NCBI GenBank assembly: GCA_965649295.1
Contig: CBFGKH010000001.1
Span: 128,001-192,000 of the forward strand
DNA length: 64,000 nt
Source: a candidate division WOR-3 bacterium
GTDB taxonomy: Bacteria > Hydrothermota > Tepidihabitantia > Tepidihabitantales > Tepidihabitantaceae
Reading direction: 5' to 3'
This document shows positions 30,627-31,988 of this stretch, one piece after another. The position numbers were made by a program, and so were the translations under genes. Below the pieces are notes generated by a model. The model had not been told where the DNA came from, did not search any database, and was given only the letters and a program-made list of their open reading frames with translations. The first letter of the stretch is position 1, and every line of letters begins with the position of its first letter.

Positions 30627-31988
30627 TTGACCGTGTCCGACTCAGCTCTGGCCCCATTCAAGAAGGTGTTGATCGCCGATCGGGGCGAAATTGCCCTGCG
30701 CGTCCTGCGCGCCTGTCGCGAACAGGGCCTGGCCGCAGTTGTCATCTATTCTGAGCCGGATCGGGATTCGCTTCCGGTCCTGCTCGCCGACGAGGCGGTC
30801 TGCATCGGCCCCGGTCCACTCCCGGACAGTTACGCCAACGTCTCACGAGTGCTTTCTGCCGCCGAGATTACCCACTGTGACGCAGTTCACCCCGGCTATG
30901 GCCCACTTGCCACCAGTCCCGAATTTGCCGACGCCTGCCAGTCGCTTGGCCTCCGTTTCATCGGCCCTGATGTTGAGACCATGCGGCGCTGTCGTGATAA
31001 GCTCGGTGCCCGCGAACTTGCCCGGTCCATTGGCGTACCGGTTCTGCCCGGTTCAGTCGGCGAAGTCAAGGACGCGGCTGAAGCTGCCCGGCTTGGCACT
31101 GAGCTTGGCTATCCGCTAATGGTCAAAGCCGCGGCCGGGTCCGGTCCCAAGAACAAACTTGTCATCCGTCGTGACCGCGACGTCGAAACTGTCTTTCGGA
31201 TGGCAGTCGCTGATGCTCGGGCCGAATTCGGCTCCCCTAGTGTCTATATCGAGAAATTCCTTACCCATGCGCGCCACATCGAAATCCCGTTGCTCGCTGA
31301 CCAGCACGGCAACATTGTAGCCCTGCCCGAACGCGACTGCTCAGTCCAATACCGCTACCGCAAGCTGCTTGAAGAGAGCCCATCCCCAGCCATCTCACCC
31401 AAGCTTCGCTCCCAGTTGCAGGCCTGGGCAATGAGTATCGGTCGCGCCGTTGCTATCACCAATACGGCGGTGGTCGAGTTCCTCTGCGACAACAATGGCA
31501 ACTGCGGCTTCATCGCCATTGACTCACGGCTGCATATCGAGCATCCGCTCACCGAAATGATTACTGGTCTGGACATTGTCCGGTTCCAACTTGCTAGTGC
31601 TGCCGGTGCCGCCCTCGCCGTTGAAAGTCCTCCCCCCTTCATGGGACACGCCATCGAGTGCCGCATCAACGCCGAAGACCCAGACGCCTCATTTGCACCG
31701 ACAACCGGACTGATAACCGAAGCCCGCTTTGCCGGCGGCCCCGGCATCCGGATAGATAGCTACGTCACGTCTGGCTATGTTGTTAGCGAGTTCTACGATC
31801 GGCTGCTGGCCAAACTGATAGCCTGGGCGCCAAACCGTGAGCAGGCAATCAGCCGAATGGAACGCGCCCTGGCCGAAACCGTGCTCCTTGGTCCAACCAC
31901 CAACCTGCGACTCCACCAGCGGCTGCTCGCCAGCCGTCGGTTCCGGCGTGGCCAGCTTGCCATCGGCATGCTTGACGAGGAGTTTTAG
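30627..31988 (+). CDS. Biotin carboxylase (AccC)-like ATP-grasp protein with degenerate active-site motifs
   Basis: Full-length collinearity with AccC (KVLIADRGEIA, HPGYG, ERDCS, EHPLTE, ECRINAED, GGPGIRID), but key motifs are altered (see findings). Confidence 0.88.
   Translation: MTVSDSALAPFKKVLIADRGEIALRVLRACREQGLAAVVIYSEPDRDSLPVLLADEAVCIGPGPLPDSYANVSRVLSAAEITHCDAVHPGYGPLATSPEFADACQSLGLRFIGPDVETMRRCRDKLGARELARSIGVPVLPGSVGEVKDAAEAARLGTELGYPLMVKAAAGSGPKNKLVIRRDRDVETVFRMAVADARAEFGSPSVYIEKFLTHARHIEIPLLADQHGNIVALPERDCSVQYRYRKLLEESPSPAISPKLRSQLQAWAMSIGRAVAITNTAVVEFLCDNNGNCGFIAIDSRLHIEHPLTEMITGLDIVRFQLASAAGAALAVESPPPFMGHAIECRINAEDPDASFAPTTGLITEARFAGGPGIRIDSYVTSGYVVSEFYDRLLAKLIAWAPNREQAISRMERALAETVLLGPTTNLRLHQRLLASRRFRRGQLAIGMLDEEF

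Follow-up and report, generated by a model that had tools for sequence, protein, structure and literature searches.

The accC gene that directly follows efp in a 64,000-nucleotide stretch of DNA from a candidate division WOR-3 bacterium (the window) encodes a degenerate biotin carboxylase (BC). Across its family, accC has been duplicated, and the efp-linked copy has undergone targeted erosion of the active site, has been maintained by purifying selection and has kept surface residues that its canonical paralogues have lost, while those paralogues have kept the active site. We propose, with a probability of roughly 0.6, that the degenerate copy would serve acetyl-CoA carboxylase (ACC) as a structural subunit without catalysis of its own, one that likely docks AccD and the biotin carrier. 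Its inactivity, its dimerisation and its docking of AccD and carrier are what we infer from sequence comparison. In the proposed mechanism, accC was duplicated, after which the efp-linked copy lost active-site residues and stayed under selection. Its product would dimerise through the kept interface, either with the canonical paralogue or with itself, and its helix 63-72, which includes E71, would hold the zinc finger of AccD and the parked biotin carrier. The relocated canonical paralogue would carboxylate the single carrier, a fusion of a PycB-type transferase with AccB, and the two jobs of AccC, catalysis and holoenzyme assembly, would in this way be split between two genes.

Recent work has shown that bacterial ACC assembles in an ordered way, with BC also docking AccD and the carrier. 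If our reading is true, a lineage in which AccC has been divided into a catalytic and a dead gene offers a natural experiment that marks the assembly surfaces of the enzyme (helix 58-72, the dimer face and the B-domain helix 176-188). It would also make two old questions testable with natural proteins, namely why BC dimerises in vivo and whether a half-dead dimer works.

The efp-linked accC gene of the window

The frame of the gene (Table 1) is intact, as the earlier note had stated; it runs over 453 codons with neither stop nor frameshift, and contigs of a strain about 95% identical span most of it with no indels. The same note had its TTG start abutting the TAG of efp. This is so in the window as read, and it fails if the start of the public gene call (P0048, 451 aa) is used, which fits a GTG at 30633, two codons downstream of the TTG. 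Whether the two genes abut exactly therefore depends on which start is taken. Open reading frames without a gap also meet at 31988/31989, 35319/35320 and 37679/37680, and such joints arise partly because the listing tool takes the first start codon. The ComB-like gene downstream lies in two frames. In contigs from all four sequencing runs of the close strain the sequence is one base shorter at 32432, and the surplus base of the window is therefore likely to stem from an assembly error or from a private change.

The product matches all three biotin carboxylase Pfam domains (N-terminal, ATP-grasp and C-terminal) over a chain of about 450 residues and is 43% identical to E. coli AccC. A structure predicted from a 23-row alignment (pLDDT 90.4) superposes on its top four solved biotin carboxylases with a TM-score of 0.95 and an rmsd of 1.3-1.6, and on the E. 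coli, S. aureus and other BC structures with TM-scores of 0.93-0.95. The protein nevertheless scores below every NCBIfam cut-off shown, including TIGR00514 for accC (492.9 vs 626.5) and PRK08591 (509.7 vs a cut-off of 597). Its named homologues are WOR-3 proteins. Databases label such proteins as ordinary accC, and metabolic models of WOR-3 bacteria consequently miscount this gene.

Table 1. Features of the window, with equivalent residues of E. coli AccC in brackets
Feature	Position	Strand	Remarks
M24 Xaa-Pro peptidase, conserved upstream neighbour	28899..30047	+	true start probably later
efp, a conserved neighbour	30069..30626	+	AQRR loop, in which Q32 lies at 30162-30164
Degenerate AccC paralogue, predicted pseudo-biotin carboxylase	30627..31988	+	453 aa; start perhaps GTG at 30633
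Residues 67-81 (58-72), with E80 = E71	30825..30869	+	by alignment; helix that docks the AccD zinc finger and BCCP in E. coli ACC; retained here, altered in the canonical paralogue
Altered glycine-rich phosphate loop (163-169)	31137..31157	+	by alignment; role of loop from cited passages
Altered substrate-bridging loop (233-238; H236>Y, Q237>R)	31347..31364	+	by alignment
Altered metal/bicarbonate motif (288-296; E288>A, N290>D, Q294>H; R292, E296 kept)	31515..31541	+	
Dimer-interface turn (359-370)	31728..31763	+	interface from cited passage, carried over by a 70-residue offset
ComB-like 2-phosphosulfolactate phosphatase	31989..32706	+	in two frames, owing to an extra base near 32432
TPR protein, often the downstream gene in the order	32812..34491	+	

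Loss of active-site residues

Substitutions were read from an alignment of the window protein with E. coli AccC (L079), whose numbering is used throughout. The 21 active-site positions scored are our own list, informed by cited passages, and not a published set. Eleven of them are kept in the window protein and ten are replaced, whereas at least 19 of the 21 are present in 144 of 149 diverse homologues. In the N-terminal part and the 84-114 region the changes are N9>D18, F84>P93, E87>T96 and G114>R123. The glycine-rich phosphate loop 163-168 is disrupted (G164>S172, G166>P174 and G168>N176, followed by M169>K177), the 233-238 loop carries R234>Y242, H236>Y244 and Q237>R245, and the 288-296 motif carries E288>A297, N290>D299, Q294>H303 and V295>I304, which leaves E276 as the only one of the metal ligands E276, E288 and N290. 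All motif changes listed in the earlier note are present in this alignment, with G114R and Q294H in addition, and the residues that it described as kept (K116, K159, K238, E276, R292, E296 and R338) are indeed kept, together with E201, H209 and Q233. The bicarbonate and biotin residues K238, R292, E296 and R338 are thus all in place in the window protein; R292, E296 and R338 are retained in only 9-12 of the 24 degenerate rows of the family alignment.

What the phosphate loop, the 233-238 loop and the two glutamates that bind metal do is described in passages on pyruvate carboxylase and AccA3 (PMC9581989, PMC5407890), and the cited part of a study of E. coli BC gives activity losses of 250-fold for N290A, 200-fold for R292A and 100-fold for R338Q (PMC8667948). 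The window protein probably has little or no biotin carboxylase activity. It may keep residual activity or ligand binding, as K116, K159, E276, R292, E296 and R338 are present.

Duplication and erosion across the family

The family alignment holds 72 rows, comprising all 54 family matches, 17 of the 27 outgroup matches and E. coli AccC, and three more family genomes were added from a second profile search. Among 40 family genomes, the efp-linked accC is degenerate in 27, canonical in 12 and absent in one, which is 63% complete; two of the locus copies were placed by their downstream neighbours only and not by pepQ-efp. The 27 genomes with a degenerate copy span eight genera, and 22 of them also show a canonical copy elsewhere. 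An efp-linked canonical copy occurs in 12 genomes of six genera, none of which yielded a second copy at a search threshold of 1e-50 or 1e-60, at which fragments could be missed, and 15 of 15 efp-linked accC copies examined in the outgroup are canonical. Most degenerate copies are accompanied by a second accC and none was found alongside the canonical ones, so degeneration tracks duplication. The window's own genome (G000, 100% complete) conforms to this pattern, with a second accC on contig C3 that has 21 of the 21 active-site residues and is 49% identical to the window copy. The best explanation for the window gene is that it is the ancestral efp-linked accC, eroded after duplication.

The extent of erosion differs between genera, from 1-4 of the 21 residues left in g2, g3, g7 and g12 to 15-16 in g9. 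No degenerate row retains G114, G164 or H236. What replaces the lost residues also varies: over the 24 degenerate rows, six residues occur at position 288 (A, E, G, K, R and Q) and seven at position 290 (D, N, S, G, E, T and R). The four proteins closest to the window copy (67-71% identical) share its altered phosphate loop and D290 and have E at 288, and most g9 copies keep E288 or N290. Because the replacements differ from genus to genus, no new active site has been built. The conserved "rewired" active site that had been considered was rejected on these grounds, and the suggestion in the earlier note of a neofunctionalised ATP-grasp ligase is not supported, given that the substitutions, when checked in relatives, were not conserved and that copies in g3 and g12 keep 1-4 of the 21 residues.

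In the trees the degenerate copies appear to form two clades apart from each other, although a repeated origin is not established. A 28-row tree built without the active-site and docking columns places the degenerate copies in two separate clades, and in a tree of EF-P and PepQ the canonical efp-linked copy of G005 (70% complete) falls between them. AU tests, however, reject neither a single degenerate clade (p = 0.09) nor a single clade of canonical paralogues (p = 0.26). In a quick tree of all 72 rows the degenerate copies sit on long branches with progressive erosion. Within the order, catalysis and scaffold may have been split apart on two or three occasions.

Altered biotin carboxylases were also seen further afield. 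P0124 is a degenerate biotin carboxylase with 9 of the 21 active-site residues and E71 kept; its profile found no close relative in 250 further genomes of the phylum, the best match being to family f2 at 53%, and it may represent a further, independent origin of degeneration. P0170, a 499-aa biotin carboxylase from Chloroflexota with 10 of the 21 residues and no E71, is possibly an unrelated pseudoenzyme. The AccC proteins of families f3 and f4 (L071-L075) have altered 233-238 loops and yet 20-21 of the 21 residues, and that of f3 also has a deletion near 341-350. In family f19 of the phylum, a biotin carboxylase match was found in none of 14 genomes, several of which are 97-100% complete.

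Selection on the degenerate copies

The degenerate copies are held intact by purifying selection. Ratios of dN/dS were computed by the Nei-Gojobori method for pairs within genera, kin being non-independent samples. They are 0.10-0.27 for degenerate copies of g3, g9, g10 and g12 (35 of 36 pairs defined) and 0.06-0.15 for the canonical paralogues there, at synonymous distances from 0.14 to over 1. The window gene gives 0.16 against g10 and 0.26 against g9, both near saturation. Genus g8 is an exception, with 0.28-0.41 for the degenerate copies and 0.36 for its canonical pair, and this counts against a scaffold role. The dN/dS comparison proposed in the earlier note, which had raised a retained pseudoenzyme as one option, therefore comes out in favour of retention: the fold is kept with its catalytic residues lost, frames are intact across eight genera, and the gene is under purifying selection with a canonical paralogue elsewhere in the genome, all as judged from sequence.

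A redundant duplicate on its way to loss would fit the long branches, the progressive erosion and the C-terminal ends, which vary in g3, g7 and g12. Such pseudogene decay was rejected and is next to incredible, as dN/dS lies far below 1 at these synonymous distances, reading frames stay open over 427-480 aa in 21 of 24 degenerate rows (the other three being cut by contig ends) and erosion is concentrated at the active site.

Constraint is unevenly distributed over the protein. In nine non-overlapping pairs of degenerate copies, 31 of 184 active-site positions differ, against 0 of 146 in seven pairs of canonical paralogues. The protein-average difference in the degenerate pairs is 0.15, compared with 0 of 24 at R16, R19 and E23 and 8 of 108 in the dimer turn 359-370. 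Active-site codons of the degenerate copies evolve at the protein-average rate (pN/pS 0.23 vs 0.25). Within the dimer turn, none of the 24 degenerate copies departs from G362, P363 or R366, and the window protein itself has R16, R19, E23, R401 and the turn. A 15-position "dimer" set showed no non-synonymous against 41 synonymous changes; this set was compiled with the conservation track in view and is partly circular, and weight is placed instead on the dimer sets defined in the literature.

These rates also bear on whether the protein could be a weak enzyme or a ligand sensor, selected for slow turnover or for binding nucleotide, bicarbonate or biotin. Such a role would account for the residues kept in the window copy (K116, K159, E201, H209, Q233, E276, R292, E296 and R338), for the retention of E288 or N290 in g9 and for the conservation of the B-domain helix 176-188 in all degenerate copies (D177 in 24/24, R183 in 23/24). 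The degenerate copies also keep E348, and the retention of R183, E348 and D177 may reflect shared descent with the single-copy genes. We regard a weak enzyme or sensor as very unlikely, since G114, G164 and H236 are gone from every degenerate row, the gene is retained in four genera with only 1-4 active-site residues, and active-site codons are under no more than average constraint.

Reciprocal retention of a putative docking surface

In the cited passages on E. coli ACC, E71 and P64 of AccC cluster with W24 and V33 of AccD and with M121 and M123 of the biotin carrier protein (BCCP), and a BC that is active and defective in dimerisation does not support growth (PMC11160672). From the latter it follows that AccC does more than catalyse and also serves a structural function. 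Our comparison took in the 164 positions at which single-copy and outgroup AccC are both conserved, with one PccB-linked outgroup row omitted. At 114 of them the canonical paralogues are the better conserved, led by the active site, and at 27 the degenerate copies are, led by E71, G374, S245 and S68. E71 tops the ranking of positions kept in degenerate copies and lost in paralogues (0.85 vs 0.00). It is present in 21 of 23 degenerate rows, none of 18 canonical paralogues, 11 of 11 single-copy proteins and 16 of 17 outgroup rows, as well as in 47 of 48 degenerate proteins of a partly overlapping set; that only 8 of 149 diverse homologues have it counts against the scaffold reading. Similarly, D58 is found in 22 of 23 degenerate copies and 2 of 18 canonical paralogues. 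Over the docking positions (49, 51, 53, 63-72 and 94-100), the window protein matches the single-copy consensus at 12 of 13 (0.92), and the paralogue in its own genome does so at 7 of 13 (0.54).

Against the scaffold reading, the docking signal rests on few residues, and whole contact sets differ little between degenerate copies and paralogues: 8/72 vs 10/56 differences for the AccD-contact set, a small gap, and 1/45 vs 2/35 for the BCCP-contact set. Position 71 is L or M in 10 of the 18 canonical paralogues, and some Gram-positive AccC proteins carry a hydrophobic residue there, according to passages of the same study (PMC11160672), so that canonical paralogues may still dock AccD. In favour of docking, all 30 family AccD proteins examined carry residues equivalent to W24 and Y35 along with the zinc cysteines. 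Unlike in E. coli ACC, family AccD is devoid of the W3/I4 anchor, which in E. coli binds a pocket of the BC dimer, nor is the corresponding pocket conserved in the BC proteins.

Partners, carrier and a proposed division of labour

The earlier note had also remarked on a missing accB and had proposed a search for accA, accB, accD, birA or another accC. AccB is indeed absent among the open reading frames and domains of the window locus; genome-wide it is not, as an AccB-type carrier is fused to a transferase on contig C12. Besides the canonical accC, the window's genome encodes AccA, AccD with its zinc finger, BirA, FabD and a PccB-type transferase. Its sole strong biotin-carrier match is the fusion (L141), a protein of about 650 aa that joins a PycB/OadA-type transferase to the N-terminal motif of AccB and a biotinyl domain of AccB type. 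The carrier-transferase fusion was found in 20 of 20 fetched loci across the order (L141, L142-L160), and it is the single biotin carrier in most family genomes, where one carrier serves three transferases. A genome of another order (G060) retains the order efp-accB-accC. AccB thus appears to have moved into the fusion rather than to have been plainly lost, so that efp and accC now adjoin; given the gene order in G060, this adjacency is a remnant of an old operon. With PycB/OadA and AccB in one chain, a single carrier would link the carboxylation of pyruvate to that of acetyl-CoA. A role of the fusion in a sodium-pumping oxaloacetate decarboxylase was rejected, OadB having been found in 0 of 61 genomes with a control positive in 2 of 14.

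Five of the 27 genomes yielded only the degenerate copy, namely G007 and G029 (both 98% complete) and G006, G025 and G033 (84-88%), and these count against a division of labour. In G029, G033 and G006 the site that holds the canonical accC in related genomes is without it, and the degenerate copy of G007 keeps 4 of the 21 active-site residues. One alternative is that the dead copy joins AccA, AccD and the carrier into a transcarboxylase, with the carboxyl group taken from oxaloacetate through the PycB-type domain and no BC activity needed. The fusion of the only carrier to such a domain, the lack of OadB, the presence of PEP carboxykinase in five of five genomes tested (the GTP type in none of the five) and the genomes without a second accC would all fit. 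We consider it rather unlikely for the family, in which 22 of the 27 genomes keep a canonical paralogue under strong constraint. Moreover, the genus of G029 and G033 is the one with the least erosion, and G030 (97% complete), where the canonical accC was first scored as missing and then recovered as a C-terminal piece by the edge of a contig, illustrates how assemblies drop this gene. That ACC should run as a transcarboxylase on a dead scaffold, forming malonyl-CoA without ATP at that step, with an active accC dispensable in G007 and G029, is doubtful; if true, it would be a natural, ATP-sparing route to malonyl-CoA.

E. coli BC is said to need both of its subunits active, going by the title of a 2001 report by Janiyani et al., and this argues against a productive heterodimer of degenerate and canonical copies. 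It would suit an inhibitory regulator, in which mixed dimers or parking of the carrier would damp carboxylation or steer the shared carrier between acetyl-CoA, pyruvate and propionyl-CoA. The strongly kept dimer residues and the one carrier for three transferases point the same way, and in the cited part of one study plant heteromeric ACC is controlled by non-catalytic BADC subunits (PMC12706156). We nonetheless hold a regulator to be unlikely, because it leaves the loss of E71, D58 and S68 from the active paralogue unexplained and because the dead copy is the one found more consistently: 22 of 27 genomes have both, five the dead copy only and none the relocated canonical copy alone, a count that efp linkage and assembly gaps may bias.

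Comparison with known systems

The window protein resembles E. coli AccC (TIGR00514) in its three domains, predicted fold, length class, dimer residues, helix 63-72 and linkage to efp, and departs from it in the ten replaced active-site residues, the score below cut-off and the canonical paralogue that accompanies it. The ACC of this family further differs from that of E. coli in having the PycB-transferase/AccB fusion as carrier and no free AccB. As far as the cited passages go, Chloroflexus aurantiacus likewise has two BC paralogues with different partners, BC1 and BC2; both are active with conserved active sites (PMC11077971), whereas here one site is eroded. Plant BADC is a closer parallel in that a non-catalytic paralogue of an ACC subunit is retained in the complex, a candidate role in our case, although BADC proteins are non-biotinylated copies of the carrier (passages of PMC12706156) and the present protein is bacterial and derives from the carboxylase.

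The alpha subunit of two-subunit pyruvate carboxylase, as described in part of PMC5059739, is similarly a stand-alone BC able to serve a transferase-carrier fusion. That subunit has a C-terminal helix 454-472 which neither paralogue here possesses (the window protein ends at the equivalent of E. coli residue 444, before the hydrophobic helix at about 454-472), and the fusion here bears an AccB-type N-terminal motif. The trypanosome prozyme is another dead paralogue retained as partner of an active enzyme; it has an unrelated fold and is reported to activate its partner (PMC5201418), while the role proposed here is a candidate one. No natural inactive biotin carboxylase was found in the literature searched.

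The neighbouring EF-P

The divergence of accC beside an atypical efp had led the earlier note to speculate about an EF-P-linked function and to suggest looking at co-occurrence. The EF-P of the window has an AQRR loop, with Q32 at what would be, going by the E. coli motif, the usual position of the tip lysine. This loop is found in 48 of 48 efp genes examined, of which 22 lie beside a degenerate and 26 beside a canonical accC (15 of these outside the family). The loop is thus not tied to the degenerate copy, and the EF-P link was rejected. In G032 efp and the degenerate gene are on different contigs, which speaks neither way. That the protein should be a new ATP-grasp ligase with the Q-tip EF-P as its substrate is given almost no credence: the genes are adjacent and probably co-transcribed and the ATP-grasp fold is intact in the predicted model, but the AQRR loop is as common beside canonical accC, the efp-accB-accC order of G060 makes the adjacency an operon remnant, and the degenerate copies share no new catalytic residues.

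No description of an EF-P with an AQRR tip was found in the literature searched. It is the only EF-P found in several genomes of 96-99% completeness, such as G002, G011 and G015, and occurs in G060 as well. The window's genome additionally encodes a second, divergent EF-P paralogue (G000:C6:125875-126444) that is 35% identical and has another atypical loop; such second copies occur here and there in the family, and in the other families of the order they are common.
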